A DNA stretch of 64,000 nt, taken from NCBI GenBank assembly GCA_021463845.1, contig JAJTXV010000001.1, forward strand, positions 518,174 through 582,173. The letters run 5' to 3'. Below are positions 10,270 to 31,879 of this stretch, one piece after another; the stretch's first letter is position 1, and every line of letters starts with the position of its first letter. Source of the stretch: Anaerolineales bacterium (GTDB taxonomy: Bacteria > Chloroflexota > Anaerolineae > Anaerolineales > UBA11579). A program made the position numbers and the translations under genes. The notes beneath the pieces were generated by a model that ran no database searches, was not told the DNA's origin, and saw only the letters and a program-made list of their open reading frames with translations.

Positions 10270-10303
10270 GGGGAAATTGTATCGCTTACTCTCACAGATA
10301 TGA

Positions 10304-10332
10304 TTGACATTTAAAAATATGAGTGATATAAA
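10304..10332 (+). promoter_or_regulatory. Sigma70-like promoter upstream of the S12 paralog
   Basis: TTGACA (10304-10309), a 17-nt spacer, then TATAAA (10327-10332), about 40 nt upstream of ATG 10372. Confidence 0.45.
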
Positions 10333-10371
10333 CTACTGCTTATAAACAAGAATAGATGCTAGGACTGGTAA

Positions 10372-10797
10372 ATGCCAACAATTAATCAATTAGTTCGCAA
10401 GGGTCGTAAGACAAAGAGATCAAAGCAAAAGGCTAAGGCCTTTAAGTTCATTCTAAACTCAAAACTCTCGCTGCGAAAAAAAGATAAGAAGGGTTCCCCA
10501 CAAAAGCGTGGGGTTGCAACCGTAGTCCGCACGATGACGCCACGCAAACCTAATTCGGCGCTTCGAAAGATAATGCGCGTAAGATTATCGAATGGGATGG
10601 AAGTAACTGCTTATATACCAGGTGAAGGTCACACTTTGCAGGAGCACAGCGTCGTTCTAGTTAAGGGCGGAAAAGTTAGAGACTTACCTGGCGTAAGGTA
10701 TCATGTTGTGAGAGGCGCTTTAGATGCTACCGGCGTTGAAGGTAGAAAGCAAAGTAGAAGTAAATACGGAACTAAAAAAGCCAAGAAGGCGAGTTAG
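10372..10797 (+). CDS. rpsL: Ribosomal protein S12 paralog (divergent, stand-alone)
   Basis: 141 aa. S12 motifs run end to end: [20 protein letters not shown](R)[22 protein letters not shown](R)[14 protein letters not shown]. It has no rpsG/fusA/tuf neighbours and lies in low-GC context. Confidence 0.85.
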
Positions 10798-10819
10798 CCC
10801 TTTTTTTAAGGTGGTTGCT

Positions 10820-11326
10820 TTGGTTCAGGATGAAAAAATTGTAGCAATTGCGTATAAGCTTCATGTTGATGGAGCTTTATATGAAAGCGTCTCTAGCCAA
10901 GCTCCATTTGAGTATCTTCATGGTGGCAGTAATATCCTTACCGCGCTTGAAAAGGTGCTGCAGGGCAAATCAATTGGTGAAACTGTTGAAGTCAAGCTTT
11001 TAGCTGACCAAGCTTTTGGGGATTATGATGAGGACAGCGTAGAGGTGGTTCCGCGGAGTGATTTTGTCTTTACCCAGCCCGGCATCAATATAGAAGTTGG
11101 CCAGCAGGTTCAGCTAGTTGACAGTGAAGGCAATCTTACAAATTATGTTGTAACGAGATTTGATGACGCTGTTGTGGTTTTAGACCCTAATCATCAATTA
11201 GCGGGCAAGCAATTAAGTTTCACGATTGAAGTTGTAGGAATTAGGGAGCCATCTGCAAGCGAGCGTGATCGAGGTGTACCTAATAGTCTCGACTCAAGGC
11301 TTGGAGTGGTATTGAGACAGGAATAA
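10820..11326 (+). CDS. slyD: SlyD-like FKBP-type peptidyl-prolyl isomerase (no His-rich tail)
   Basis: ORF 10724..11326. The plausible start is TTG 10820 (SD AAGGTGG 5 nt upstream), with GTG 10811 as an alternative. It is collinear with SlyD: IVAIAYKLHVDG...PFEYLHGGSNILTALEKVLQGKSIGE...DPNHQLAGKQLSFTIEVVGIREPS. Confidence 0.75.
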   Translation: MVQDEKIVAIAYKLHVDGALYESVSSQAPFEYLHGGSNILTALEKVLQGKSIGETVEVKLLADQAFGDYDEDSVEVVPRSDFVFTQPGINIEVGQQVQLVDSEGNLTNYVVTRFDDAVVVLDPNHQLAGKQLSFTIEVVGIREPSASERDRGVPNSLDSRLGVVLRQE

Positions 11327-11375
11327 AATTTGTTGTTTTGATAGGCGGAGTGTTATTGTCTATACGGAGATTGAA

Positions 11376-12629
11376 TTGAAAAAGCTCCTTCTCGGGTGTC
11401 TCGGCGTTCTTCTGTTTGCATGTTCACCGGTGAGCAACTCTGGCACTGTTACTACGCTTCGAATTTTTGACTATTCACCAGATGCAGCAGCTTTCTGGGT
11501 CGAAATTATCCCACTGTTTGAACTTGAATACCCAGACATTGAAATTGTACACGAGTCGGTAACCCCGGATGTTTTTTTTCAATTGAAGTCTGCGAAAATT
11601 GCTGGTCAGAGCGTTGATATTATCTCAGGGCAACCACAAGACGACCTATTTACTAAGGCAAATAGAGATCTCTTTCTCCCATTGTCTGGCGAGGATTTCC
11701 TTGCAAATTTTTATCCTGATTTAGTTCAGCAGGGAGTAGTGGATGGGGAGATTTACTTAGTGCCGACAAGTATGGAAACGGTTTTAGTGTTTTATAACAA
11801 AGAAATCTTTGCCGAGCATGACCTCTCGATCCCTAGAACTTGGTCTGAATTCCTAAGTTGCCTTGAGGTTTTAGAAGCTGCCGGACATATTCCCATTTTA
11901 TTCGGTGGCCAACAGCAATGGCCTGTTGCCATGCACATTATTGCTCTAGAAACTGCGATTGTTAGAAGTGCTAACCCGGATTTTTATAGTCAAGTAAGAA
12001 TGGGAGAGAGTGCACACAATGATCCGGAGTGGGTAGAAGTCTTTGAAAAGCTATCAGTGCTTAAGGATTACTATCAACAATTTAGTCTTGGTCAGGACTA
12101 CGATCAAATTCCAAGTCTTTTCGCTTCAGGTACCGGGGCGATGATTATTGATGGGAGCTGGCAGGCTGGAGCTATAACAAAAGCTCAGCCGATCTTTGAT
12201 GTCGGAGTCTTTGCACTTCCAGGGACCGATGACGTTGATGCAAATGGCGTTGTATCAACAAAAATGGGGAATGGCTTTATGGTACTCAAGGATTCCCCAA
12301 ATCACGAAGCAGCTTTGAAATTCCTTGAGTTCTTCTCCCGACCAGAGATATACCAATTGTATGCTAATGCTACTGGCCGGCTACCATCGCAGCGTTCCGC
12401 GGAAATTACTGACTCCGTTTTGTTGGAGATCTTACGAACAATTAATGATGAGAAGTATCGTCAAGTAATGGTTTGGGAAAATTTAGTAATTCCTGGTGCT
12501 CGTTATGATTTTGATGCGCTTGGAATAGCGGTTGTGTCCGGAGATCTTTCGGGAATTGAGGCGGCAAACCGAATGCAGCAAAACATTTTAGATACTAAGG
12601 ATGATTGGGAAGAAATAGAGCTTCCATGA
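11376..12629 (+). CDS. ABC transporter substrate-binding lipoprotein (carbohydrate/CUT1-like)
   Basis: 417 aa with a TTG start. It has a lipobox (LLFACSP) and the layout of extracellular solute-binding family 1. Two MalF/MalG-type permeases follow it. Confidence 0.75.
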   Translation: MKKLLLGCLGVLLFACSPVSNSGTVTTLRIFDYSPDAAAFWVEIIPLFELEYPDIEIVHESVTPDVFFQLKSAKIAGQSVDIISGQPQDDLFTKANRDLFLPLSGEDFLANFYPDLVQQGVVDGEIYLVPTSMETVLVFYNKEIFAEHDLSIPRTWSEFLSCLEVLEAAGHIPILFGGQQQWPVAMHIIALETAIVRSANPDFYSQVRMGESAHNDPEWVEVFEKLSVLKDYYQQFSLGQDYDQIPSLFASGTGAMIIDGSWQAGAITKAQPIFDVGVFALPGTDDVDANGVVSTKMGNGFMVLKDSPNHEAALKFLEFFSRPEIYQLYANATGRLPSQRSAEITDSVLLEILRTINDEKYRQVMVWENLVIPGARYDFDALGIAVVSGDLSGIEAANRMQQNILDTKDDWEEIELP

Positions 12630-12662
12630 AAAGCGTAATGAGCACAATTCGGCTAGCTTAGT

Positions 12663-13568
12663 GTGTTCAAAAAACCGTTGTGGTCGAAAATTTCAGTTTA
12701 CCTTCCTTTTTTCGCGGCTGTCTTTCTCTTTTCCTTCTTTTTTTTGCTCCCAGCTTTTTTGAACTTAGTCTTCTCAGTTACAGATTTTGATGGAAATATT
12801 AATCAGATTCATTATATTGGTTTGCAAAACTTTGTTCGTGCATTTACGCTCGACCAAATGCGGATTTCTAACTCCCTCTTCGTAACATTAGTTTTTACAA
12901 TTGGGTCAGTCATCCCTTTAAATACTTTGGGCCTAGCATTGGCAGTTCTTGCTTTGGATGACACCCTCTACAATAGGGTTATCCGAGTAATAGTTTTTTC
13001 TCCTGCCATTTTGGGAACAATAGTTGTGGGGCTTACGTGGAGGCTGATGCTTGATCCTACGCGTGGACCTGTGAATGCTTTTTTACAAAAAATTGGAGAA
13101 GGCTCGGCGCTTTTGGGGGACTTGACGCTCTCTCTGCCCTTGGTCATTTTTGTTCGAGTTTGGATGTACTTGGGTTATACGATGCTCATATACACGATAG
13201 GCTTAAAAGCAATTAATTCAAGTATATATGATGCTGCTGTGGTAGACGGAGCCTCCTCGTTTCAGGTGTTTAGATTAATTTCTCTTCCTCTTCTTATCCC
13301 CGCAATATTAGTGAACTTGTTTTTTACAACTGTCGGCGCCTTAAATACATACGACATAATTGTTGTGCTTACAAATGGAGGGCCGCTGGATCGAACGACT
13401 ACACTCCCACTTTTTGTATATCGTATCCTTACTTCTGGCAGTACAATTGCATCTAGATATGGGACATTGGCCTATGGGACTGCAATTTCTACTGTTCACT
13501 TTATCTTGGTGATGTTAGCCGCGCTGGTTGCATACATTATTCTAAGGAAAGCGGCGAGCTCTTTTTGA
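12663..13568 (+). CDS. ABC transporter permease (MalF-like)
   Basis: 301 aa with six TM helices. The EAA-type loop reads IDGASSFQVFRLISLPLL. Confidence 0.8.
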   Translation: MFKKPLWSKISVYLPFFAAVFLFSFFFLLPAFLNLVFSVTDFDGNINQIHYIGLQNFVRAFTLDQMRISNSLFVTLVFTIGSVIPLNTLGLALAVLALDDTLYNRVIRVIVFSPAILGTIVVGLTWRLMLDPTRGPVNAFLQKIGEGSALLGDLTLSLPLVIFVRVWMYLGYTMLIYTIGLKAINSSIYDAAVVDGASSFQVFRLISLPLLIPAILVNLFFTTVGALNTYDIIVVLTNGGPLDRTTTLPLFVYRILTSGSTIASRYGTLAYGTAISTVHFILVMLAALVAYIILRKAASSF

Positions 13569-14383
13569 TGCAAGGACTTTTCAGCAGGAAAATTGCCAGG
13601 ATAAGTCTTGCGTGGTTTGCAGGATTAGTACTTGTGCCACTCTTATTGATTCTTCGGGTGTCATTGAAAGGAGAGGTTGATTGGCTGCAAAGGCCTCTTG
13701 ATTTCTTTTCTCCAGTTTATTTTGAAAACTACTTGGTTGCGTGGACAACTGCCCAGCTGGGAAAATCCTTTGCAAACAGTTTATTGTATTCATTATCAAC
13801 TGCCCTGATTGTGTGCCTAAGTGGCTTGATTATCGCTTACCCGATTTCCAGAAGAAATGTGCCCTACAGTTTATTTTGGCTTGCTTTGTTTGCGATTGGC
13901 CTTGTGATCCCCTTGGGGTTGATTCCTAGCGTTTATTTATTTAGATACTTGGGACTATACAACACTTACTTTGGATATGTGCTAGTTAGCTGCGCTATTA
14001 ATTTGCCCGTGGCGGTATTTTTGTTCGTGGCGTTCATTAAAACTATGCCTATTGAGCTTGAAGAAGCAGCCATCTTGGACGGATGCTCATACTTTGGTTT
14101 TCTTTATAGGATTTTGATTCCTCTAATGAAACCGGCAATTTTTGTTTCCGGATTATTGACGATAATATCAGTTTGGAATGACTTCATTAATCCCATGCTT
14201 TTTATTTCTGAAGCTTCATTGAGGCCTCTAACAACAAGTATTTATGTGTTTCAAGGGCAATTCGCGACTAACTGGCCATTATTGTCTGCTGCGATTGTCA
14301 TGATATCTCTGCCATTGGTCGCTATATTAATACTTTTGCAAAAAGAATTGGTGCCTAGTTTGCTTATAGAGTCATCAAAATAG
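13565..14383 (+). CDS. ABC transporter permease (MalG-like)
   Basis: 272 aa. It overlaps the upstream permease by 4 nt. The EAA loop reads EEAAILDGCSYFGFLYRILIPLMKP. Confidence 0.8.
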   Translation: MMQGLFSRKIARISLAWFAGLVLVPLLLILRVSLKGEVDWLQRPLDFFSPVYFENYLVAWTTAQLGKSFANSLLYSLSTALIVCLSGLIIAYPISRRNVPYSLFWLALFAIGLVIPLGLIPSVYLFRYLGLYNTYFGYVLVSCAINLPVAVFLFVAFIKTMPIELEEAAILDGCSYFGFLYRILIPLMKPAIFVSGLLTIISVWNDFINPMLFISEASLRPLTTSIYVFQGQFATNWPLLSAAIVMISLPLVAILILLQKELVPSLLIESSK

Positions 14384-14395
14384 ATGGGCGTGTAA

Positions 14396-14908
14396 ATGAC
14401 ATCTACTAACTCCTCTCCCCAACCCGTCTCCGTTTCGCGCATCACCATCTCCCAGCTGATGCAGCCGGAGAATGCCAACCTGCTCGGCAATGTCCACGGC
14501 GGCCACATCATGAAGCTGGTCGACGAGGCCGGCGCCCTGGCCTGCATGAAGCACAGCCGCCAGCGCGTGGTCACCGTGGCGGTGGACCGCATGACCTTCC
14601 AGCATCCCATCCGCATCGGTGACCTCATCATCATCCATGCCGAGGTCAGTTATGTCGGCAGCACCTCGATGGAGGCCGAGGTCTCTGTGCACGCCGAGAA
14701 CCCCACCACCGGCGAGAGCTGGCACACCAATACCGCCTACCTGGTCTATGTAGCCTTGGGCGAGGACGGCAAGCCGGTGCGCGTGCCGCCGCTGGAAGCT
14801 GAGAACGACTTCCAGCGCCAGCGCATGGAGCAGGGCGCCGCCCGCCAGAAGTATCGCCTCGAACAGGCCAAGCAGGAACGCTCCCTCTTCGGCAAAGACT
14901 CTGCATGA
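14396..14908 (+). CDS. Acyl-CoA thioesterase (hotdog fold)
   Basis: 170 aa. ISQLMQPENANLLGNVHGGHIMKLVDEAGALA is the YciA/ACOT-type hotdog signature. Confidence 0.8.
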   Translation: MTSTNSSPQPVSVSRITISQLMQPENANLLGNVHGGHIMKLVDEAGALACMKHSRQRVVTVAVDRMTFQHPIRIGDLIIIHAEVSYVGSTSMEAEVSVHAENPTTGESWHTNTAYLVYVALGEDGKPVRVPPLEAENDFQRQRMEQGAARQKYRLEQAKQERSLFGKDSA

Positions 14909-20990: not shown

Positions 20991-21024
20991 TAAAAAAGAG
21001 GCGCAGCTAAAAGCTGCGCCTCTT
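20991..21024 (-). terminator. Rho-independent terminator of the TPR/peptidase operon
   Basis: On the minus strand the stem AGAGGCGCAGC-TTTTA-GCTGCGCCTCT is followed by TTTTTTAATC, about 20 nt after the stop at 21044. Confidence 0.75.
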
Positions 21025-21043
21025 TGATTCGTAGGGAGCGTGG

Positions 21044-23953
21044 TTAGCGGCTGACGGCCAGCTTGACTACTTTGCCTTGCGCGTCCATGGTGATGCGGGC
21101 GTACTTGGGGTGCATGCGCCCAGCGCTGGGTACTTTCTTGCTCAGGGTGACCAGACTGCGGCTGGGCGCCAGGATGGTGCGCTTGGCCCCGCTGTTGTGA
21201 TGGTGCGGCAGCGGGCAGTTGTGGTTCTGGCAGTTGGTGTGCTCGTGGCTGACGCTGACCTCGCTGCCTTGCATGCCGGGCAGGTACTCCTTGACCACGG
21301 CTTTGACGGTGGCCAGGGTTTCTTCGGGCAGCGCTTCCATGGGGATGTTGTCGCCCAGGCCGTAAGCATCCGGCAGGTCGCAGACGGTGGTCATCTCGCT
21401 GCTCTCGGCGCGCAGGATGCGCTTGGGCAGGCTGGCATCCGTATTGACCTGGGCCAGCGGATCGCCATACAGCACGAAGGAGATCAGGGTCTTCTGGTCC
21501 TCGCCATCCAGGTAGCCCTGACGGCGGTGCATGGTCTGGGCCATGGCGATCTTGGCGCGGCGCAGGGCCTCGCCAGCGGGGTGGCCTTCGTTCAGCAGTC
21601 GCCAGAAGGTCTGGCCCAGCAGGTCGGCGGCGATCAGCGGCGTGGAGACCGCGCCGTAGGAGGTGACGGTGGAGCCGACCACGGCTTTGCTGCCCGAGTC
21701 GATGAACTTGAGCGCCAGGGCATTGTCGACAGTCTTATTGAAGATGTTGGCGCCGAAGCAGGCTTCGCTGAAGACCACTTGCGGAGCGCGGCCGTGGTTG
21801 ACCACATCGTTGGGGCTGAGGGCTATGGGGTAATCCGGCCCGGTGGGGGTCAGCAGCGGGTCGCGCTGGCCGTACCAGTCTGGCCCGTCTTCCACGCCGT
21901 GCAGGTTGAAGTAGGCCACTTGCAAAGCCTTGCTAGCTTCCTTGGGCAGCTTGCCGGTTTCGGTGGGCGGGCTGAGGCTGAGGCGCTTGGGCTCGCCAAT
22001 CGTGCGGTAGACCGAGTGGGAGGCACGCTGCCAGACCTGGGCGGTGTAGCCAAAGCTGCTGCGTTTGGGCTTCCACAAGCCGAACATCATCAGCAAACGG
22101 TTGATCAATTGACGCAGCGGGTCTTGCTTGGCCACAATATTTTCGCGGCTGGCCTCGATGCGGTTAAGCGCCTTAAGCAGCGCGCCGGGGTCTTTCTCGT
22201 TACCGGTTGGCAGGCGGCCAGCCGGCCAGGTGGGCACGAAGTAGTTCTCGTCCAGGCTGGCGTATGGGTTATCCGAAGGAACATCCTTGTCGTCGTCGTC
22301 AACCGGATTGGGCAGGTGATGGAACGGCACGATCCTCGGGCCGCCCACGATGAGCAGCGCGCCGATCATTTCGCCGTTCTTGCGCAGGGCCTCGTCAAGG
22401 TCGGCCAGCATGTGTTTGATGGCCCACGGATCGTTGGTGTTGACGGCCTGCAGGCCGAATGAAGCCATGCAGGCTTTATCGTCGGCGTAGATGACGTAGG
22501 AGCCCCACTTGGGCAGCGCATCGGTGGCGGTGGCCACGGCGCGCAGGCTGGCGTCCACCGTAGCGAAGCCATCCATGCCGTATTGGCGCACCAGGTTGTC
22601 TTTGGAGCTGAGCAGAATGTAGGCCGGGTAGCGGCCGTCGGCGCGCAAACGCAGGGTCTCGGCGGTGGCCGTGTTGATCTCTTCGAGATCGATCAGGGTT
22701 TCAGGCAAGGACGAGAGAGCGTGCTGCAAGGTTTCATTGGTGACATCGTCGTTCAGGCTCTGGCTGATAGAGGTTTCAGACTTCGCTTCCAAAAAATCTG
22801 GCGCGCTTACAGGCGCGAATTCGATGGCGTTCTCGCGTTGGTCTGGGCTATTTGCTTCGGTAGCGCTAAATTCGGCAGCCTTGCTTTCGGCTTTGGCTTC
22901 GTCGCTATCGATCGATTTAGCAAATTCGGCTTTTAGTTTGCCAAACTTTAGTGCCCAGCCGCTGAACATAGGCGTGTGGCCTTCTTCGTTGAGCAAGTGC
23001 TTTTCGTTCTTGATGCCCTTGGCGAAATCTTTCTTGACCTGGCGAGTGTTGAGAGCCTCGGCATCCAGCATGGGCGCATGCACAGACTCCAGTTGTGGCT
23101 CAACGTCCTTGGCTTCAGCAGGTTGGCCGAAAGTGAAAGTGTCGATCTGGTTCCAGCCCAGGCCGGCCGCCACTTTGGCGGGGATGGGCGTGCTGATGGT
23201 GTGCTGCAGGGCAGCCGGCCACAGGGCGGCGAAGCGGTGGCTGGCGCCCCACAGGCGGCGAGGCACCTGGCCGCTGACATCTTCGGCGGCGCAGTCGTGC
23301 AGTACGTCCACCGCAGCATTCTCCTGGCCGCTTTCCATCAGGAAGTTGGCGTGGAGCAAGCGCAGCTGCAAGCAATGCGGCCAGCTGCCGCTGTATAGCT
23401 CGACAAGATTCTCAATTGCCAGCCAGGTCAGCCCTTGCGCCTGCGCAATTTGAATGTGCAGCAGGGCCGGCAGCGGTGACGGAGGCTCGGCCAGCAGGGC
23501 GGCCTGCACATTCAGCTCGGCCTGCTCCAGATCGCCGACCTTGAAGGCTTGCTGGGCGCGCAGCAGACTCTGCGCCCAGGGCTGAATGTCGGCAGGCACC
23601 TGGAAGGGCTGGCGCAGCACGGTGGCGGCGGCGCGGGCGGCCTCGGCCACGGCGGGCTTGATGCGGCGGGCCAACTTGGCCAGCTGCTCCTGCGCTTCGA
23701 CGAATTCAGGGTCGAGCTCGCATAGACGGCGCAGCACTTTGAAGGCGACTTCAGGCTTGCCGTCCTTGATCAAGGCCTGGGAGCGCAGCAACTCGACATG
23801 CAGGTCGTAAGGATAGGCATTGAGCCAATCTTCGGCCACCTGGCGCACGAAGCGCATCTCGCCCGCGTTCAGGGCGACCTGGAGCAGGGTCAGCACGGCA
23901 GCGCGGTCTACGGCCTTGCCGGTGGAGATCTGCTTCTTTAATGTGTCGTTCAT
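21044..23953 (-). CDS. TPR-repeat protein fused to a gingipain-like (peptidase C25, clan CD) cysteine peptidase domain, with His/Cys-rich tail
   Basis: 969 aa.
- The N-terminal ~260 aa are TPR-like, followed by an acidic linker.
- The C-terminal half shows C25-type landmarks in order: ALLIVGGPRIVPF, SDNPYASLDENYFVPTWPAGRLP, YFNLHGVEDGPDWYG (His) and VVFSEACFGANIF (Cys).
- The tail reads HEHTNCQNHNCPLPHHHN.
- There is no signal peptide. Confidence 0.55.
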   Translation of the reverse strand: MNDTLKKQISTGKAVDRAAVLTLLQVALNAGEMRFVRQVAEDWLNAYPYDLHVELLRSQALIKDGKPEVAFKVLRRLCELDPEFVEAQEQLAKLARRIKPAVAEAARAAATVLRQPFQVPADIQPWAQSLLRAQQAFKVGDLEQAELNVQAALLAEPPSPLPALLHIQIAQAQGLTWLAIENLVELYSGSWPHCLQLRLLHANFLMESGQENAAVDVLHDCAAEDVSGQVPRRLWGASHRFAALWPAALQHTISTPIPAKVAAGLGWNQIDTFTFGQPAEAKDVEPQLESVHAPMLDAEALNTRQVKKDFAKGIKNEKHLLNEEGHTPMFSGWALKFGKLKAEFAKSIDSDEAKAESKAAEFSATEANSPDQRENAIEFAPVSAPDFLEAKSETSISQSLNDDVTNETLQHALSSLPETLIDLEEINTATAETLRLRADGRYPAYILLSSKDNLVRQYGMDGFATVDASLRAVATATDALPKWGSYVIYADDKACMASFGLQAVNTNDPWAIKHMLADLDEALRKNGEMIGALLIVGGPRIVPFHHLPNPVDDDDKDVPSDNPYASLDENYFVPTWPAGRLPTGNEKDPGALLKALNRIEASRENIVAKQDPLRQLINRLLMMFGLWKPKRSSFGYTAQVWQRASHSVYRTIGEPKRLSLSPPTETGKLPKEASKALQVAYFNLHGVEDGPDWYGQRDPLLTPTGPDYPIALSPNDVVNHGRAPQVVFSEACFGANIFNKTVDNALALKFIDSGSKAVVGSTVTSYGAVSTPLIAADLLGQTFWRLLNEGHPAGEALRRAKIAMAQTMHRRQGYLDGEDQKTLISFVLYGDPLAQVNTDASLPKRILRAESSEMTTVCDLPDAYGLGDNIPMEALPEETLATVKAVVKEYLPGMQGSEVSVSHEHTNCQNHNCPLPHHHNSGAKRTILAPSRSLVTLSKKVPSAGRMHPKYARITMDAQGKVVKLAVSR

Positions 23954-26900
23954 AGCGCACTCACTTCCTGCGGTTGGTGGATCAAGTTCAGGGCGATCAC
24001 GGCGGCCAGCTGGCGCTGGATGCTGCGCTCACGTGGTGCCAGCTGGGCGGCCTTGCGCAGCGCGGCCTCGGCGGCGGTGTAGTCTTTGACATCTTTCAGC
24101 GCCTGGGCGGTCTGCAAGTGCGGCTGCGGGCTGTGCGGCGCGGCCGCGGCGGCCAGCTCAAAGGCATGGATGGCCTGCTTGAACTGGCGGCGGTTGAGGA
24201 ACACCTGGCCGCGCTCGATCTGGACTTCGCTGAGGTGCGGCGCCAGGGCGGCGGCTTCATCCAGGTGATGCAAGGATTGGTCCAGCTGGCCGCAGCTCTT
24301 GAGCAGCTTGCCCAGGTGCAGGTGCAGACGGGCTTGCTGCGGCAGCGGCAGCGTGTCGGCCTTCTTGGCGGCACGCTGGGCAGCCTGGATGGCGTCGAGG
24401 GTCTCGCCAGTGTTGGCCAGCATCTCGGACAGGGTCAGGTACACATCCGGGCGCTCGGTGTTGGCCTTGCTCAGGCGCAACACTTCGCTGAGGCCCTTCT
24501 CGGCCGGCAGCAGTTGAGCGCGACGCAACTGGATGGGCAGCTTGTCGGCCGCGTATTGCTCGGAGCGTTCGAGCACGGCCAGGGCATCGTCAACTTCGCC
24601 CATGGCGTGCAGGCACTCGGCGTACAGACTGAGGACGTGGCTGTCAGTGGGGGTCAGGCGCAGGGCGCTCTCGGCCAGGCTCTTGGCGGTGGCGGTGTCA
24701 GTATTGTGCAGGGCGATCTCGGCCTGCAGTACCAGCGCGGCGTTGGAATTGGGCGCCAGCTTGTGAGCGGCGGCGGCCTTCTCGCTGGCCTGTTTCAGGT
24801 TACCGGCCTGCTTGTAGGCCTGGGCCAACGCCAGCATGTATGCGCCAGACTTGGGCTGCAGCTTGGCGGCCTGCTCGAAGGCGTGCTGGGCCAGTGGATA
24901 CTGTTCAGCCTCGAGCTGGGCCTGGCCCAGTTCGAAGTGACGCTCGGCTTCGCCGGGCTGCATGGCTACGGCGTGCTCGAAGTAGTCGATGGCATCGGAC
25001 AATGCACCCGCCCGCTGCAGCAGCTTGCCGGCGAAGGCCTGCCACAGCGCTTGCACGGGGGAGAGGGCGATCGCCTGGCGGATGTGTTCCAGAGCGGTCT
25101 GGGCTTGGCCAGCCTGCTGGGCGAAGCGGGCGGCCAGCGCGTGGTACGGCGCGGTGTGAGGCTTCTGCTCCAACGCGCCCAGCATCCACTTCAGGGCGCT
25201 GCTGGCATCGGCATCGCCGAAGGCCAGGGCGCGCTCGACCAGGACTTCGGGCGAACGCCAAAAGCCTTTGGCGTTCGCCTCGACCGTGCGCAGGTCGCCG
25301 CGGGTGCGGGCGGCGTAGACCAGCGCGGCGGCTTCGCCGGCGCTGCTGGGGTAGCCGGTGGGCATGCTGGCTACGTCGGAGCCGGCGCCGAAGCGCAGGG
25401 CGGCGCGGGCCAGCCAGTGCTCCAGCTGGGCGCGGGCGGCCGCGAACGGCGCGGTGCTGAGCGCGGCGGAGAAGGCGGCGCGAGCGGCGGCATAGGCTTC
25501 GGCGCTGGTGGCGGCTTCGCCAGGGGCGCCGGACACGGTATCGCTGGCGGCGCACAGCTGCTGCCATTCGGCGCGGTGCACGATGGCCTTGCCGAGCGCG
25601 AACTGCGCCAGGGCCTGGCCGGGCACCAGCTTGACGGCCAATTGCAGCAGATTCACGGCGGCTTCATAGTTCATCACATTTTGAGAAGCACGTGCCAGGC
25701 TGATGAGGGTGAAGGCGTCTTGCGGTTCGCTGAACTTGTTGTTCACCATGTCCAGCGCAGTATTCAGGTAGTGCTCAGCCTGGGTGCGGTCAGCGCGGCG
25801 GGCGGCCAGCTGGGCTTGCAGCGCCAGCACGCGGGCCGACTGCGCTTCGCCTTCGAGGGCGGGCGCCAGCGCCTTGGCGGCGGACAGCTCTTCGTTGCTG
25901 TCGAGAGCCAGCTCGGCTTGCAGGCAGGCTAGCTCGGCCTGCGGGGCTTCGGCCAGCTTGGCTTCGGCCAGCAGGGAGCGGGCGCGCTCGGGTTGCAGGG
26001 TGGCGAGCGCAAGCTCGGCAGCCAGCAGCAGCAAGGGCTGGTGGGTCAGGTCGAGGTGGAAGGCTTTCTCGGCGGCGGTGAGGGCGGCAGCCCATTCGCC
26101 GGCGGCACGCAGCAGGCGGGCCTTGTTGGCCAGCAGGCCCAGATCATTGGGCATGCGTTCGATGGCTTGCTCAAGCGCCTCGAGGGCGGCCTGCGGGCGA
26201 CCTGCCGCCTGCAGTACGCGCGCCTTGCGGGCCAGCAGGGTGGGCTGGCCGGGCTCGGCGGCCAGACTCTTCTCAATGATAGCCAGCGCTTCGTTCCATT
26301 GCTGGCTGTGCTCGTAGGCTTCGGTCAGCGCGTCCAGCAGGGCGGGCGTCTCTTCCAGTTCGATGGCGCGCTTAAAATATGACACGCTGGTGGCGGCGGC
26401 GCGGCGCTCCAGCAGGAAGCGGCCGGCTTTGGCCAGCGCGGCGCTATTCGCGCTGCGCAGCAAGTTGGCCAGCGTGTCTACGGCTTTCTCGTGGGTGCCG
26501 TCCTGCCATTCCAGCTCGGCCAGGCGCAGCACATGGGCGGCCGAGCCGTGCTCGGCAATGCCCTTGCTGAGGGCGCGGCGGGCGTCTTCGCCCTTGCCGA
26601 GCGCTTCGGCCTGGTTGGCGAACCACAGCACATCCTGCTCGTGCTTGCCGCTGGTCATATAGACCTTGCTGGCGATCTGGAAGGCTTCTTCGGTGCGGCC
26701 GGCCTGGCTGTATGCCATGCACAGCGCGTGCAGTACGTCAGGGTCACCGGGGGAAGTGACATCCAGCGCTTCGAGGATGCTCAGCGCTTCCTCGTGCTCG
26801 CCCTGGCTGGCCTGGGCCAGAGCTTTGCCCAGGACCAGACGCTTGTTCCAGCCCGGCTCTTGGGCCAGGTCGGAGCGCAGGGCGGCTTCAAATTCGTGGA

Positions 26901-29076
26901 TGGCTTCGGTGTGCTTGCTCTGGGCGGCCAGCGCTTCGCCGAGCAGGGCGGTGGCCAGCGAGGAAGGGCGCATATCCAAGGCGGCGCGCAGCAGGGCCTC
27001 GGCTTCGACGGCGGCCTTGTTCAGTAGTTGGGCCTGGGCTGCATCCAGCAAGGCTTCTATATTGTTCGGCTCGGCCTGCAAGGTGACCTGCAGGGCGGCC
27101 AGCGCAGCGGGGGCTTCCTTGTGGGCCAGCAGCAGCTTGCCCAGCTCGTGTTGCAGGCCAGCGTGCTGTGGATACGTATTCACGCCGCGCTCCAGTGTGT
27201 GGCGGGCCTGGTTGGTGTGGCCGAGAGCGCGCTGCAGGCGGCCCAATTGCAGGGTGGCATTTTGGTTCAGTAGGTTGTTGGGCTGAGCAGTGGGCTCAGC
27301 CAATAACTCAACAGCTCGCGAGAAGGCGCCCAGGGCGGCCTCGTTCTCTTGCAGAGCCAAATAAATTTCACCCAGCAAATATTGCAGGTCGGCGCTGGGT
27401 TTGGTGAACTGCTGGGCATTGAAGAGCGTGTCACGGGCGGCCTGCACATCGCCCTGGTCGCGCAGCAGCTCGGCCAGCACGATCCAGGCCTCGTGCTGCG
27501 CCGGGGCCAGTTCGGTGGCGCGGCGCAAGTGCTCGACGGCGCTGTTGGCATCGCCCTGGGCTACGAGAGCCTTACCCATCACGGCGTGGGCGCCGCCGTG
27601 GGTGGCCTGCACGGCCAGCACGCGCTGGCAGGCCTGGATGCACTCAACCAACTGATCGGCGTCCAGCGCGGTCTGCGCCAGACCAAACAGGTCATCCAGA
27701 GTCGGCTCGGTCTCCTGCGCCATCACGGCCAGCCATTCGCTGTAGGCATCGGCGCCTTGCTGGTTGGCCTGCAACGCCTTGGCCAGTTGGCGGCGCAGGT
27801 CACTACGCTCCGGCGCCAGGGCGGCGGCCAGATGGGCGGCCTGCAGGGCGCGGTGGGGCTCGTTGCAAAGCGTCATCACGCGGCTCAGGAAGGCGGCGCT
27901 GTCGGCATCATTGGGAGCATGCTGCACAGCCAACTCTGCGGCCTGGCGGGCGGCTTCGCCCAATTTCAGATCAACAAAAATTTCGCCGAGTTGGCGCATC
28001 AAAGCGGCGTTCTCGCCCGCGGCGCTGTCTTGCGCGGCGGCCAGTGCGGCGGCGGCCATGCGCTGGGCTTCGGAAGCATCGCCGGACTTCAGCGCCACGC
28101 GGGCGGCAGCGATCAGGGCGGCGGGATGCTTGCTGCCGGCGCTCTTGGCAGCCGCGGCGGCGCTTTCCGGCAGGGCGGCCAGACCAGGGGCATCAGCATG
28201 CACGGCGGCGTTCTCGGCCAGCTTGCCGGCCAGTTCGGCCTGCACGCGTTGGGCCGCGCCCCAGGCGGCATGCAGCAGGGGGGCGGCTTCTTCCGGCTGA
28301 CCGCTGAGCTGGCGGATCTCGGCTTGCAGCAGCAAGCGTTCGATCTGGCTCAGTTCGCTGCCTTCGTCTTGTGGCGCAGTGTCCAGCTTGTGCAGTGCAA
28401 AGCGAGCTGCTTGCTGGGCTAGCGGCAGGTGCATGTGCGCCAGTTGGCGCAGCACAGATACGAATTGAGGGATGGGGTAGTCAGCAATGGTTTGCAGCAA
28501 CACCGCGCTTTGCTCATCCGCCGTTAGCGGATTGCTGGTGAGGGCGTGCAGGCCCAGCTTGTGCAGCTCGGCCTCCGGCGCGCTCAACAGGGCGGCCAGC
28601 AGATCCTGCGGCTCCGGCAGCATGCCGAACAGCACCGCCACTGGCAGCTTCCAGAATTCCGGCGAAGCAACGCTGAGATCCTGAGCCAACTGCTCCCAGC
28701 TGCCCAGGACGCGGCGACGCTCACGCAGGGCCAGCGCCAGCAGGGCGGCCAGCTCGACGGTGGGTGCAGCCTCTGCGCCTTGAGTGGATACTTGCTCATA
28801 GGCGCTGGCGGCCTGGTAGCGCAGCTTTTCCGCCACCGCCTCACGCAATTCCGCACGCAGCTCCGCATGCAGACCTGACTGGCCCAGACGCAGCAAGCCC
28901 AGAAAGGCCGGCGACCACGCATTGCGTTGGGCGCCGGCGGCTTCCAGGGCTTGCGCGCCAAAGTCGGCCTGCTGCAACTCAGCCCACAGGGTGGGCTCGT
29001 TGCGCAATGCGGCCACTACCAGCGGCCATTCACTTTGCGGCAGGCGGTTCTTGAGGTCTGCGATGAATGAGCTCAT
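23950..29076 (-). CDS. Giant tetratricopeptide-repeat protein (1,708 aa)
   Basis: After a ~250-aa unrecognised N-terminus, the whole length is Ala/Leu-rich 34-aa TPR-type helical hairpins (repeated A..Y/F..AL...P). Its stop overlaps the next gene's ATG (ATGA). Confidence 0.7.
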   Translation of the reverse strand: MSSFIADLKNRLPQSEWPLVVAALRNEPTLWAELQQADFGAQALEAAGAQRNAWSPAFLGLLRLGQSGLHAELRAELREAVAEKLRYQAASAYEQVSTQGAEAAPTVELAALLALALRERRRVLGSWEQLAQDLSVASPEFWKLPVAVLFGMLPEPQDLLAALLSAPEAELHKLGLHALTSNPLTADEQSAVLLQTIADYPIPQFVSVLRQLAHMHLPLAQQAARFALHKLDTAPQDEGSELSQIERLLLQAEIRQLSGQPEEAAPLLHAAWGAAQRVQAELAGKLAENAAVHADAPGLAALPESAAAAAKSAGSKHPAALIAAARVALKSGDASEAQRMAAAALAAAQDSAAGENAALMRQLGEIFVDLKLGEAARQAAELAVQHAPNDADSAAFLSRVMTLCNEPHRALQAAHLAAALAPERSDLRRQLAKALQANQQGADAYSEWLAVMAQETEPTLDDLFGLAQTALDADQLVECIQACQRVLAVQATHGGAHAVMGKALVAQGDANSAVEHLRRATELAPAQHEAWIVLAELLRDQGDVQAARDTLFNAQQFTKPSADLQYLLGEIYLALQENEAALGAFSRAVELLAEPTAQPNNLLNQNATLQLGRLQRALGHTNQARHTLERGVNTYPQHAGLQHELGKLLLAHKEAPAALAALQVTLQAEPNNIEALLDAAQAQLLNKAAVEAEALLRAALDMRPSSLATALLGEALAAQSKHTEAIHEFEAALRSDLAQEPGWNKRLVLGKALAQASQGEHEEALSILEALDVTSPGDPDVLHALCMAYSQAGRTEEAFQIASKVYMTSGKHEQDVLWFANQAEALGKGEDARRALSKGIAEHGSAAHVLRLAELEWQDGTHEKAVDTLANLLRSANSAALAKAGRFLLERRAAATSVSYFKRAIELEETPALLDALTEAYEHSQQWNEALAIIEKSLAAEPGQPTLLARKARVLQAAGRPQAALEALEQAIERMPNDLGLLANKARLLRAAGEWAAALTAAEKAFHLDLTHQPLLLLAAELALATLQPERARSLLAEAKLAEAPQAELACLQAELALDSNEELSAAKALAPALEGEAQSARVLALQAQLAARRADRTQAEHYLNTALDMVNNKFSEPQDAFTLISLARASQNVMNYEAAVNLLQLAVKLVPGQALAQFALGKAIVHRAEWQQLCAASDTVSGAPGEAATSAEAYAAARAAFSAALSTAPFAAARAQLEHWLARAALRFGAGSDVASMPTGYPSSAGEAAALVYAARTRGDLRTVEANAKGFWRSPEVLVERALAFGDADASSALKWMLGALEQKPHTAPYHALAARFAQQAGQAQTALEHIRQAIALSPVQALWQAFAGKLLQRAGALSDAIDYFEHAVAMQPGEAERHFELGQAQLEAEQYPLAQHAFEQAAKLQPKSGAYMLALAQAYKQAGNLKQASEKAAAAHKLAPNSNAALVLQAEIALHNTDTATAKSLAESALRLTPTDSHVLSLYAECLHAMGEVDDALAVLERSEQYAADKLPIQLRRAQLLPAEKGLSEVLRLSKANTERPDVYLTLSEMLANTGETLDAIQAAQRAAKKADTLPLPQQARLHLHLGKLLKSCGQLDQSLHHLDEAAALAPHLSEVQIERGQVFLNRRQFKQAIHAFELAAAAAPHSPQPHLQTAQALKDVKDYTAAEAALRKAAQLAPRERSIQRQLAAVIALNLIHQPQEVSAL

Positions 29077-29100
29077 GCGTACTTCCGTTTCTGTGATGGT

Positions 29101-29430
29101 TTAGGCCCAGTTGACTTGCAGAACGACCCAGAAGCCGCCGGCCATCAAAGCCAGGCCCAGCGAAGTCAGGAAAATGCCAACGCCGGTAGCGGTCTTGACC
29201 ATTTGCTGCACACCTTCAAGCAGTGCGCTGGCGCCGGTGACGAGCTGGGCTACATCCTCAGCAATGCCTTTTTGCACCAGCTGGGCGGTGTGCTTGCTCA
29301 GGTTTTTGACTTCCTTGCTGTGGGTGCGGGTGACAAGGATGAAAAGCCCCATGGCTAGGGCGCACATGCCAAAGAAGAACAGGGCGGCGGCCATCAACAG
29401 CAGGGTGTCAGATTGGTTCAGTACGTACAT
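29101..29430 (-). CDS. Small two-TM membrane protein, first gene of the TPR operon
   Basis: ORF 29101..29466. The start at ATG 29430 (MYVLNQ...) has a GGAGGA SD 4-5 nt upstream. It has two hydrophobic helices flanking an amphipathic segment. Confidence 0.5.
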   Translation of the reverse strand: MYVLNQSDTLLLMAAALFFFGMCALAMGLFILVTRTHSKEVKNLSKHTAQLVQKGIAEDVAQLVTGASALLEGVQQMVKTATGVGIFLTSLGLALMAGGFWVVLQVNWA

Positions 29431-29501
29431 GTCTTCCTCCGAGAAAAGACTAAAGTGAAACCCCATGTTGCAAGAAGCGTGCCTGTTCGGCCTGGCGGGA
29501 A

Positions 29502-29530
29502 TTGACGGGTGGGGGCGGATGGGCTAAAAT
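29502..29530 (+). promoter_or_regulatory. Sigma70-like promoter for L25/Ctc
   Basis: TTGACG (29502-29507), a 17-nt spacer, then TAAAAT (29525-29530). Confidence 0.5.
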
Positions 29531-29546: not shown

Positions 29547-29588
29547 AAGTTGCAGGTGCAACTTACGTCTCCGCTACGGAGACGTTTT
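29547..29588 (+). promoter_or_regulatory. Two-hairpin leader of the L25 gene (second hairpin is terminator-like)
   Basis: P1 is aagttgca-gg-tgcaactt (29547-29564). P2 is acgtctccg-cta-cggagacgt (29565-29585), followed by TTTT. Confidence 0.4.
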
Positions 29589-29669
29589 CGCGGAATGGTC
29601 TAGCGGGATGATTGGTAACTGGCGCTGCGAGACTTGGCGTTGGTGAGAGGCGTCCCAAGGATGGATCGA

Positions 29670-30355: not shown

Positions 30356-30391
30356 ATAAAAAAGCCCGCCATTCGGCGGGCTTTTTTTTTA
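30356..30391. terminator. Bidirectional rho-independent terminator
   Basis: AAAAAAA-AGCCCGCC-ATTC-GGCGGGCT-TTTTTTTT, between convergent genes. Confidence 0.8.
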
Positions 30392-31081
30392 TGTGTCGCT
30401 TGGCTCCAGCAGGGTCTCGTGGACGCGGCCCGCTTTGCGTTGCAGCCGGTGAACGCGTGCGCCGCGGCCGAAGGCCAGCACCTTGTGCAACTTACCGTTG
30501 ATGTAGTGCACCGCGGCCAGGTCGTCAAGCGCAAGGCCGGCTTTGACAGCGCCAGCAGCGACCAGCTTGCGGAAGGTAGGGCGGCGGCCAGCTTCGCTAT
30601 CGTAGTGCGGACAGCAGCTGCCGGGTAGCCAGCCCAAGCAGTCCATAGGTAACAGCTTGCCAGGTACGGAGTCGGTGATTCCTTGTTCAAACCAACAGAT
30701 GGCGCCGGCGCTGCCGCCTGCCAGCACGGTGCCGCGGGTGTACGCGGTATGCAGGGCTTCGTCCACGCCCCAGGCGCGCCACAACGCCAGCATGTTGCGC
30801 GTGTTACCGCCGCCGACCCAGATCAGGTCTTGCGCCAGCAACAGCTTGCTGACATCAGCGGTATTGGGCTGGATCAGGGTGAGATGCGAGACGCGCGCGC
30901 CAAGCTGACTGAAGGCGCGCGTCACGCGGGTGATATGGCGGGGCAGGTCGCCGCCGGCGGTAGGCAGGAAGCAGACGCGCGGTGCGCGCGCTTGAGTGGC
31001 GGCCAGCAGGTAGCGCTCCAGTGGCGCGCCGCGGCGGCCAATGGCTTTGGAGCCTGCGCCCACCGCGATGATCTGTTGCAT
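30389..31081 (-). CDS. Peptidase S51 family (dipeptidase E/cyanophycinase-like)
   Basis: 230 aa. CFLPTAGGD...LIWVGGGNTRNMLALW...VLAGGSAGAICWFE is typical of the S51 Ser-His-Glu hydrolases. Confidence 0.7.
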   Translation of the reverse strand: MQQIIAVGAGSKAIGRRGAPLERYLLAATQARAPRVCFLPTAGGDLPRHITRVTRAFSQLGARVSHLTLIQPNTADVSKLLLAQDLIWVGGGNTRNMLALWRAWGVDEALHTAYTRGTVLAGGSAGAICWFEQGITDSVPGKLLPMDCLGWLPGSCCPHYDSEAGRRPTFRKLVAAGAVKAGLALDDLAAVHYINGKLHKVLAFGRGARVHRLQRKAGRVHETLLEPSDT

Positions 31082-31084
31082 GAA

Positions 31085-31879
31085 CTAGAGAGTGGGGTGC
31101 TGCACGGCGAAGGCGGCCTGCAGGAAGGCTAGTACGCGCTCCGGGCCGTCAGCCTTGGCGGCCACTTCACTATACGGCAGCAGGGCACCGTGCCAGCCGC
31201 CCGTGTTCCAGCGGGCGCCAGCCGGCAAAGCCTGCTGGCCTAGCGCTTTGTCGAACGGGTGCGGGCTGACATAGAAATACTCATTGCCCGGCTGAGTGGA
31301 AAGGCCAAAGGTGATGGTCTTGTCATCGCCATTGACCGGGGTCACGAAGGACAGATCAAACATGCGCGGCCACAATTGGACTACGTCAGAAGCCTGGCCC
31401 AACTGCTTGCGGGCATCTTCGAAGATCTGGTTGGCCAGCCGCAGAGTGGCCAGGAAGCGCTCGGCATCGTCGAGGGCATAGTCACGCTTGGCGTCGCTGC
31501 TGTAGCTCTTGGCGGGCACTTTGCCCTGCACGCCGAGCTCGGCCAGGCGGGCGATCAGTTCGTTGCCGAGCTGCGTGCCGCTGAGCCCTTCGCTCAGGCG
31601 CAGCTGCTGGACATGGCCGCCGCTGGTGCTGAGGATGAAGTAGTGATTGCGCAAATCGAGGCTCAGGGCGAAGGTCTGGGCCGGATCCTCGGGAAATGAG
31701 ATGGGCGTGGTAGTGAGGCCGGAGGTGTAGACGCGCAGGCCGAGGTGGCCGTGGCGCGGCTGCTCGGCGGTGAAGGCGGCGCGGATGGCGCTGGCCACTT
31801 TGCAGTAGGCGTGCAGCGTATCGCGCGTGCCGCGCCAATCGTCAAGAACGGGGAATTGAGATTTGTCTTCGCGAGCCAT
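31085..31879 (-). CDS. Conserved hypothetical protein (DUF5996-like)
   Basis: 264 aa. The W.GTRDTLHAYCKV...IR opening resembles my recollection of DUF5996. The family assignment is weak. Confidence 0.4.
   Translation of the reverse strand: MAREDKSQFPVLDDWRGTRDTLHAYCKVASAIRAAFTAEQPRHGHLGLRVYTSGLTTTPISFPEDPAQTFALSLDLRNHYFILSTSGGHVQQLRLSEGLSGTQLGNELIARLAELGVQGKVPAKSYSSDAKRDYALDDAERFLATLRLANQIFEDARKQLGQASDVVQLWPRMFDLSFVTPVNGDDKTITFGLSTQPGNEYFYVSPHPFDKALGQQALPAGARWNTGGWHGALLPYSEVAAKADGPERVLAFLQAAFAVQHPTL

Follow-up and report, generated by a model that had tools for sequence, protein, structure and literature searches.

A conserved three-gene operon of Anaerolineae encoding a TPR-fused C25-type peptidase, a giant TPR protein and a small membrane protein, with a putative sigma-54 promoter and a possible connection to cell division

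We analyzed computationally a stretch of 64,000 nucleotides from an Anaerolineales bacterium (contig JAJTXV010000001.1, positions 518,174 to 582,173 of the forward strand; the whole stretch is hereafter called the window), in which three minus-strand genes form an operon encoding a small membrane protein, a 1,708-amino-acid (aa) protein of tetratricopeptide repeats (TPRs) and a 969-aa protein that combines a TPR domain with a cysteine peptidase domain. The 969-aa protein belongs to peptidase family C25 of clan CD, and its catalytic dyad is conserved. We propose that the operon is transcribed from a sigma-54 promoter and builds a membrane-associated complex for intracellular proteolysis, probably division-linked, and regard this reading, taken as a whole, as evenly balanced between being right and being wrong. 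Its parts differ in strength: the molecular description of the system is held with considerable confidence, and the role in division, taken by itself, is tentative.

The assignment to C25 was obtained by searching the catalytic region separately. Residues 430–969 alone matched Peptidase_C25 (PF01364) at 54.3 bits (cutoff 23) with an E-value of 1.7e-14 over profile positions 43–372 of 374, and the same family was matched by 11 of 21 homologues (best E = 4.3e-15), some of which are named 'C25 family cysteine peptidase' by the Prokaryotic Genome Annotation Pipeline (PGAP). A full-length hmmscan of the 969-aa protein returned no Peptidase_C25 even at E ≤ 1, giving only TPR_14 and a sub-threshold CHAT match, and a full-length NCBIfam scan likewise gave no C25. 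Since the catalytic region alone passes the C25 cutoff, the miss in the full-length searches is a filtering artefact. CHAT (PF12770) stayed below threshold in the protein itself (15.5–16.1 bits vs a cutoff of 24) and gave only weak matches in 15 of the 21 homologues (best E = 0.0019). As a side observation, automated annotation of this protease family is likely inconsistent, which may account for the mixture of the names 'hypothetical', 'TPR repeat protein' and 'C25 family' found among its members.

The fold of the catalytic region was modelled in two AlphaFold runs. The first, made for the whole protein from 21 sequences, modelled the catalytic domain poorly (mean predicted local distance difference test score, pLDDT, of 58.8) and was superseded by a second model of residues 430–969 with 90 homologues (pLDDT 78.7, predicted TM-score 0.82). 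The best PDB fold matches of the latter in Foldseek were the gingipains RgpB and Kgp (E = 1e-10 to 4e-8, probability 1.0), namely gingipain R 1cvr (E = 1.1e-10) and 4ief, and gingipain K 4rbm and 6i9a. Human separase (fifth, E = 5e-5), SAVED-CHAT and the TPR-CHAT of Craspase followed at lower ranks (TPR-CHAT and SAVED-CHAT matches: 8tl0 at 1.6e-4, 7y84 at 1.6e-3), with probabilities of 0.97–1.0 across the matches and a TM-score of up to 0.53. The preliminary description of this DNA, which was made from its letters alone, had proposed a C25/clan CD similarity from a series of peptide landmarks; all of them, LLIVGGPRIVPF, SDNPY...AGRLP, NLHG, SEACFG and HEHTNCQNHNCPLPHHHN, are found in the 969-aa protein, and the similarity itself was borne out by the profile score and by the gingipains as top fold matches.

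The clan CD/Peptidase_C25 catalytic domain (21434–22636, minus strand) covers the fold at residues ~440–840 and the Pfam match at 506–834. The two residues that had been put forward as catalytic candidates, His685 in NLHG (codon at 21899–21901, minus strand) and Cys732 in SEACFG (codon at 21758–21760, minus strand), are invariant in alignments of both 21 and 90 sequences with identity down to 28–29%, and the G, A and E residues around the dyad are also strictly invariant in the 90 sequences. In the model, each of the two lies three residues past a predicted beta-strand (V679–F682 and V726–S729, respectively). The dyad of clan CD is defined by His and Cys at the C-terminal ends of the adjacent core strands H-beta3 and H-beta4 (PMC4357240), so that His685 and Cys732, being invariant and each just after a predicted strand, fit the dyad position. 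In addition, an acidic loop, NPVDDDDKDVPSDNPY (residues 549–564), is invariant; its residues D553, D555 and D561 follow the LLIVGG strand, roughly at the position of the S1 residue Asp163 in gingipain R. Its placement behind the first core strand hints at a P1 preference for Arg or Lys.

The likeness to the gingipains of Porphyromonas gingivalis extends from the Pfam match over nearly the whole C25 profile and the best structural matches to the His/Cys dyad after two adjacent strands and to the extra N-terminal strands and C-terminal beta-rich domain on either side of the caspase-like core, an arrangement that recalls the NSD-CSD-IgSF order of RgpB; the acidic residues may also lie where the S1 Asp is expected. 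Unlike the gingipains, however, the protease described here is intracellular as judged from its sequence, since a signal peptide, an inhibitory prodomain and a C-terminal domain for the type IX secretion system (T9SS) are all missing. In their place are a TPR domain of 265 aa and a disordered linker of 170 aa. The protease gene shares its operon, and the putative sigma-54 promoter, with those of the giant TPR protein and the membrane protein, and it comes from Chloroflexota and not from Bacteroidota, with an identity of only ~15% in the structural alignment.

Regarding the other parts of the protein, the N-terminal TPR domain (residues 1–265; 23159–23953, minus strand) is modelled as ~13 helices with pLDDT of 84–96 over most of its length, and Pfam TPR_14 matches residues 55–94. 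It is followed by a linker (residues 269–439; 22637–23149, minus strand) which is predicted to be disordered (pLDDT < 50) and varies in length, the alignment showing large insertions and deletions in this region of the homologues. The C-terminal alpha/beta domain (residues 870–969; 21047–21346, minus strand) has one helix and four beta-strands in the model, and includes a Cys/His cluster, SHEHTNCQNHNCPLPHHH (residues 902–919; 21197–21250, minus strand), in a loop of low model confidence. The end of the protein had been described as metal-binding in appearance. C858, C908, H911, C913 and H948 are conserved in at least 90% of the 90 sequences, as would be expected of a metal site, and the final HHH shows no such conservation; the C-terminal Cys/His domain probably binds metal.

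No hydrophobic segment of signal-peptide or transmembrane (TM) grade and no Tat motif were found in the protease, and the top 19-aa Kyte–Doolittle values of the two large proteins were 1.29 and 1.43, the latter being the maximum of the 1,708-aa TPR protein, which also showed no TM or signal-peptide segment by this measure. Since neither protein has such a segment, both are most likely cytoplasmic. The earlier statement that the large proteins have no signal peptide is thereby upheld by the hydropathy, and for the protease by the confident model of its N-terminal TPR domain.

The TPR protein is rich in Ala (22%) and Leu (15%), and its TPR-type signal runs from approximately residue 341 to the C-terminus, with matches to 20 TPR-type Pfam families (best E = 4e-40). 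Its first ~340 residues gave no Pfam or PDB match, and a search of the N-terminal 340–445 aa found no structure or family except the TPR-like signal from ~341 onwards; the unrecognised N-terminal domain was noted previously, but the region without detectable repeats measures ~340 aa and not ~250 aa. Orthologues have 1,292–2,044 aa (median 1,787), and the TPR domain of the protease and the giant TPR protein have only generic repeat similarity to each other. One genome (L002 / L018: 4883–8761 and 8859–10004) has two ORFs, of 1,292 and 381 aa, in place of a single giant TPR gene; a frameshift, an error of assembly or a genuine split could each account for this.

The small protein, which we propose as the membrane anchor, shows by hydropathy two hydrophobic helices, taken as TM helices, around a loop of ~48 aa, and had no match to any Pfam, NCBIfam or PADLOC family. 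This loop, with the consensus LaqKGiaed.aGLVgnAsaLl, is its most conserved part, and probably faces the cytoplasm because Lys/Arg residues follow the first helix.

The layout of the operon was examined by an open reading frame (ORF) check, which found three minus-strand ORFs within positions 29466–21044 with products of 121, 1,708 and 969 aa. The proposed packing of three co-oriented genes was confirmed: the small gene as called from the first ATG (29101–29466, minus strand; 121 aa) is separated by 24 nt from the TPR protein gene (23950–29076, minus strand), the proposed scaffold with its helical repeats, which in turn overlaps the TPR-protease gene (21044–23953, minus strand) via ATGA, and this 4-nt overlap was found in 32 of 60 related loci. 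The operon is closed directly 3' of the protease-gene stop codon by an intrinsic terminator (20991–21025, minus strand; −24.8 kcal/mol) consisting of a 14-bp G+C-rich stem followed by a U-run. A simple terminator pattern scan missed it and RNA folding recovered it, with z = −7.3 relative to shuffled sequences, in agreement with the strong terminator claimed initially. No paralogues of the operon were found in the 64-kb window, and an Rfam scan of the whole window gave no matches.

An exhaustive search by the catalytic region returned 1,464 representative clusters with E ≤ 1e-3, of which 427 reached E ≤ 1e-30, and nearly all of the top 150 clusters share the architecture of ~850–1,000 aa, with a few shorter entries. 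Among GTDB species representatives, at least 406 stretches carry a relative of the protease; the best 80 of the 406 are all from Chloroflexota, mostly Anaerolineae, and carriers include the cultured Leptolinea tardivitalis and a Candidatus Aquidulcis genome (class Limnocylindria). Every one of the 56 loci whose upstream DNA exceeds 6.3 kb has all three genes in the same order, so that the expected co-occurrence holds well beyond this genome, and the operon was found as one locus per genome sampled. As judged from these sequences, the operon is a core, vertically inherited element.

Upstream of the small gene, a sigma-54-type −24/−12 promoter, AGGCACGCTTCTTGCA (29469–29484, minus strand), is predicted; it has the GG-N10-GC signature and agrees with the consensus TGGCAC-N5-TTGCA at 10 of 11 positions, where at least 10 of 11 was counted as a strong match. 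The exact sequence GGCAC-N5-TTGCA occurs a single time on both strands of the window, at this promoter. The promoter ends 2 nt before the ATG at 29466, which had been taken as the start of the small gene; because the −12 element is this close, that ATG is very probably not the start codon. The next ATG, at 29430, is preceded at 5 nt by a Shine-Dalgarno sequence GGAGG (29436–29440, minus strand) that is conserved in close relatives, and gives a product of 109 aa, compared with 106–113 aa in homologues, several of the relatives having no earlier ATG. The small gene therefore most likely starts at ATG 29430 (revised coordinates 29101–29430, minus strand).

Of 58 loci, 40 have the motif at the same place, ~38 nt upstream of the start codon; among 232 control windows, 17 contain it. 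Strong matches were tallied without bias over ~3 Mb on both strands and amounted to 91, of which 29 lie before the small gene, 15 before a gene for an uncharacterised protein that we call pre444, 13 before ftsZ and 4 before other genes, the remaining 30 being not near a gene start; in other words, 57 of the 91 precede only three gene families. A conserved upstream activator-binding site was also sought in the clade of the window and no clear candidate was found, which fits an activator without a DNA-binding domain. Taking these together, the operon probably shares its regulation with ftsZ in many relatives, and its trigger is probably delivered via transcription from the predicted sigma-54 promoter. 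The preliminary description had stated that the operon has no sensor gene. This is true within the window, but it leaves aside the putative sigma-54 promoter and the relatives in which rpoN, a PAS-domain histidine kinase and an NtrC-type activator lie upstream.

Gene order was surveyed in 84 loci and the window, and four arrangements recur. The one to which the window belongs is NUDIX ... L25 (divergent) – operon – SmpB – HAL. In 15 loci the order is pre444 – ftsZ – (post258) – operon; in others, exemplified by Leptolinea, it is rpoN – PAS histidine kinase – NtrC-type regulator – operon; and in 9 loci these elements are combined as rpoN – kinase – regulator – operon – pre444 – ftsZ – post258. 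The loci L057 and L069 have regulator – pre444 – ftsZ – operon. In total, ftsZ lies within ~2 kb of the operon in 24 loci (upstream in 15, downstream in 9), and this neighbouring ftsZ is canonical, scoring above the TIGR00065 equivalog cutoff. Among the associations of the operon, we regard this one as the most informative. When mapped on the protease tree, the ftsZ-linked arrangements occur in at least five clades and the regulator-linked ones in at least three. In the 15 loci with ftsZ upstream, the operon mostly has no motif of its own and follows post258, where post258 is present, at ~10 nt; this short gap and the missing motif suggest that the operon is co-transcribed there from the ftsZ promoter.

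In 12 loci, the operon directly follows rpoN and the genes for the PAS histidine kinase and the NtrC-type activator. The activator next to rpoN has REC, sigma-54-interaction/AAA+ and lid domains and no C-terminal DNA-binding domain (example L041:3233–4426; cluster of 14 loci, median 391 aa; matching positions 1–388 of 463 of the ntrC model). In this it resembles FlgR and CtcC.

Several observations were made on the ftsZ neighbourhood itself. In many Anaerolineae, two conserved proteins are encoded on either side of ftsZ. Directly upstream of ftsZ, where FtsA would be expected, lies pre444 (~444 aa; L050:238–1581, L041:12684–14012), with a sigma-54-type promoter of its own in 15 loci, and downstream lies post258 (~258 aa with an N-terminal TM segment; L050:3313–4089, L041:15621–16358). 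Neither these two nor other conserved uncharacterised neighbours gave any Pfam or NCBIfam match. The ftsZ gene is preceded at ~35 nt by a near-perfect TGGCAC-N5-TTGCA, many copies matching at 11 of 11 positions (L023, L031, L035, L050, L053, L056, L057, L065 and others); the −24 and −12 elements of these putative promoters are kept and the spacer differs between clades. No published description of sigma-54 control of ftsZ, in Chloroflexota or in general, was found in the library searched.

On this basis, we propose the following working model. The 109-aa two-helix membrane protein would present its conserved cytoplasmic loop, on which the ~1,700-aa TPR protein would dock to serve as a scaffold; the third protein would join the scaffold via its own N-terminal TPR domain, and its long flexible linker would carry the active C25 protease with the His685/Cys732 dyad, cleaving after Arg or Lys. 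A sigma-54 activator would switch the operon on, a function that the PAS kinase and the NtrC-type regulator lacking a DNA-binding domain beside rpoN may perform in relatives. A cytoplasmic or membrane-proximal target would then be cleaved, tied to division or septation in these filamentous bacteria. Such a division-tied role is favoured because the promoter type is common to the operon and ftsZ in relatives, and because adjacency to ftsZ, with probable co-transcription, recurs. Regulated intracellular proteolysis, or a scaffold system, had already been suggested for this locus, and that much of the earlier interpretation is supported by the C25 match, the invariant dyad, the co-occurrence of the operon genes and the predicted cytoplasmic placement.

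Two analogues of such a process are HetF with its substrate PatU3, and separase. HetF of Anabaena sp. PCC 7120 is a divisome component with a CHAT clan CD domain, a TM segment and TPRs, and cleaves the division inhibitor PatU3 after Arg117 (PMC8406250, PMC9457339). By analogy, HetF is the best functional precedent for the working model: both bring together a clan CD protease, TPRs and membrane attachment, the last being a proposal for the present system, in a filamentous multicellular host, with a tie to FtsZ-dependent division that would follow here from gene context. However, HetF is a single polypeptide with its own TM segment, periplasmic TPRs and a CHAT/C50-like protease, whereas the present system divides these functions among three proteins, with much larger TPR arrays that are predicted to be cytoplasmic and with a protease of C25 type. 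Separase (C50, clan CD) also joins a large helical-repeat region to a C-terminal caspase-fold protease acting in the cell-division cycle, but it is eukaryotic, a single chain of ~2,000 aa, regulated by securin and directed at cohesin; the homology shown between the two is that of the clan fold.

A more specific form of the proposal is that, in filamentous Chloroflexota, the complex belongs to the divisome or regulates it in a way peculiar to this lineage: the anchored TPR platform would place the protease at the division site to cleave a division inhibitor or an FtsZ-associated factor, and the operon, ftsZ and pre444 would make up a small sigma-54 regulon run by the PAS kinase and the activator without a DNA-binding domain. 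We consider this specific form possible but doubtful. If it is true, division in this class would be gated transcriptionally by sigma-54 and post-translationally by a protease of the separase or HetF kind.

Several points weigh against the proposal as a whole. In the clade of the window, the operon has the L25 gene on one side and SmpB/HAL on the other, and ftsZ is absent from the surrounding 10 kb, so the link to ftsZ could be inherited synteny and not shared function. The neighbours that the operon has elsewhere (AlaRS, S41 protease, metallophosphoesterase, NUDIX) indicate no single process. The promoter is a prediction from motif and conservation, and a search of the 64-kb window found no rpoN, kinase or activator genes in it. 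As to the protease, the structural match is moderate (TM-score 0.42–0.51), and the family sequence profile reaches no PDB gingipain; PDB sequence searches with the single sequence, the full-length profile or the catalytic-only profile returned designed TPR proteins or nothing.

One alternative is that the same putatively sigma-54-controlled scaffold and protease serve a process other than division, such as envelope or membrane stress, nutrient-responsive remodelling or protein quality control, the proximity to ftsZ being synteny. In other bacteria, sigma-54 regulons often concern the cell exterior, nitrogen status and membrane stress, and the PAS domains of the sensor kinase suggest a metabolic or redox cue; moreover, not only the window clade but also several other clades have the operon away from ftsZ. 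Nevertheless, the motif is common to the operon, ftsZ and pre444 and to almost nothing else in ~3 Mb, the adjacency survives rearrangement, upstream or downstream, across at least five clades, and the gaps of ~10 nt suggest co-transcription with ftsZ–post258. We take this alternative as a serious one which is nonetheless on the unlikely side.

A function in programmed cell death or phage defence, after the manner of TPR-CHAT, orthocaspase or metacaspase systems, is improbable; here the TPR array would sense an invader and free the protease. The preliminary description had pointed out a resemblance to TPR-CHAT and orthocaspase modules. The combination of TPRs with a caspase-fold protease is indeed the architecture of Craspase, where the TPR domain of TPR-CHAT (Csx29, type III-E CRISPR) is likewise N-terminal to the protease, both TPR-CHAT and SAVED-CHAT are among the fold matches, and multicellular bacteria are rich in caspase-type cell-death and defence systems (PMC7159879). 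However, PADLOC gave no matches for the protease and the small protein, and for the TPR protein a single weak repeat-level match to a candidate-system model (E = 0.005). In the window flanks and the 84 loci, there is no NTPase, CRISPR effector, SAVED domain, cyclic-nucleotide machinery or other sensor gene of that kind near the operon. The operon, with a G+C content typical of the window, stands as one locus per sampled genome among housekeeping flanks, in a core synteny stable over hundreds of species and apparently inherited vertically, unlike the sporadic occurrence of mobile defence islands. The CHAT profile scores below threshold and C25 well above, and the CHAT fold matches are weaker than those of the gingipains.

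It is less probable still that the third protein is not a hydrolase, being either a pseudo-protease within the TPR scaffold or a clan CD-fold transpeptidase or ligase. TPR content does dominate the operon, and some clan CD enzymes, namely PorU and legumain-type ligases, catalyse transpeptidation. Against the pseudo-enzyme half of this alternative, the strict invariance of His685, Cys732 and the nearby G, A and E residues in 90 sequences argues for catalysis.

Finally, a secreted, nutritional gingipain-like peptidase is very improbable, because the protease has no signal peptide, TM segment or Tat motif and begins with a confidently folded TPR domain, its gene is translationally coupled to that of a TPR protein predicted to be cytoplasmic, it has neither the prodomain of gingipains nor their T9SS C-terminal domain, and Chloroflexota are not known to possess a T9SS. 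Its membership in C25 would be in favour of secretion, as would a survey of metagenome-assembled genomes, Chloroflexi included, in which C25 is counted among the commonly found extracellular peptidases (PMC8359207).

Some other features of the window were noted in the course of the analysis. In the leader of the divergent L25 gene (29634–30326, plus strand), between a sigma-70-like promoter (29502–29530, plus strand) and the coding region, lies a hairpin of the form ACGTCTCC-N4-6-GGAGACGT followed by TTTT (29565–29592, plus strand), which is conserved across the window clade and had no Rfam match; it may be an autoregulatory attenuator. A strong bidirectional terminator (30358–30387, both strands) follows the L25 gene. 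At 10001–14400, a low-G+C island (0.42–0.46 vs ~0.62 elsewhere) codes for an FKBP-type isomerase and an ABC transporter with a solute-binding protein and two permeases, and was probably acquired horizontally. Other neighbours, with 8389–10269 (minus strand) and 30389–31879 (minus strand) among their coordinates, encode a cell-wall protein of the VanW/PG_binding_4/G5 type, a protein with Peptidase_S51 and one with DUF5996; in other genomes, these are not linked to the operon.

Literature searches, within the library available to them, found no published description of the operon or of a cytoplasmic TPR-fused C25 peptidase, in line with the earlier remark that no function had been described for it. 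The protease family is known, but the location, partners, regulation and phyletic role proposed here differ from those of every characterised member: C25 peptidases are known as secreted virulence or nutritional enzymes of Bacteroidota, whereas this one is, by prediction, intracellular and embedded in a scaffold, and its gene is part of the core of an entire class whose members are abundant, filamentous and for the most part uncultured. Metagenomic surveys, which usually count C25 hits as extracellular proteases, would therefore overestimate the extracellular proteolytic potential of Chloroflexota. The three-protein module, the compact putative sigma-54 regulon including ftsZ, and the two uncharacterised genes flanking ftsZ offer a rare handle on the cell biology of this phylum, and all of them can be studied in Anaerolineae that are already in culture, Leptolinea tardivitalis being one. 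Should the link to division be true, the control of division or differentiation by clan CD proteases would have arisen independently in three multicellular lineages, namely with separase in eukaryotes, with HetF in cyanobacteria and with the present system in Chloroflexota.

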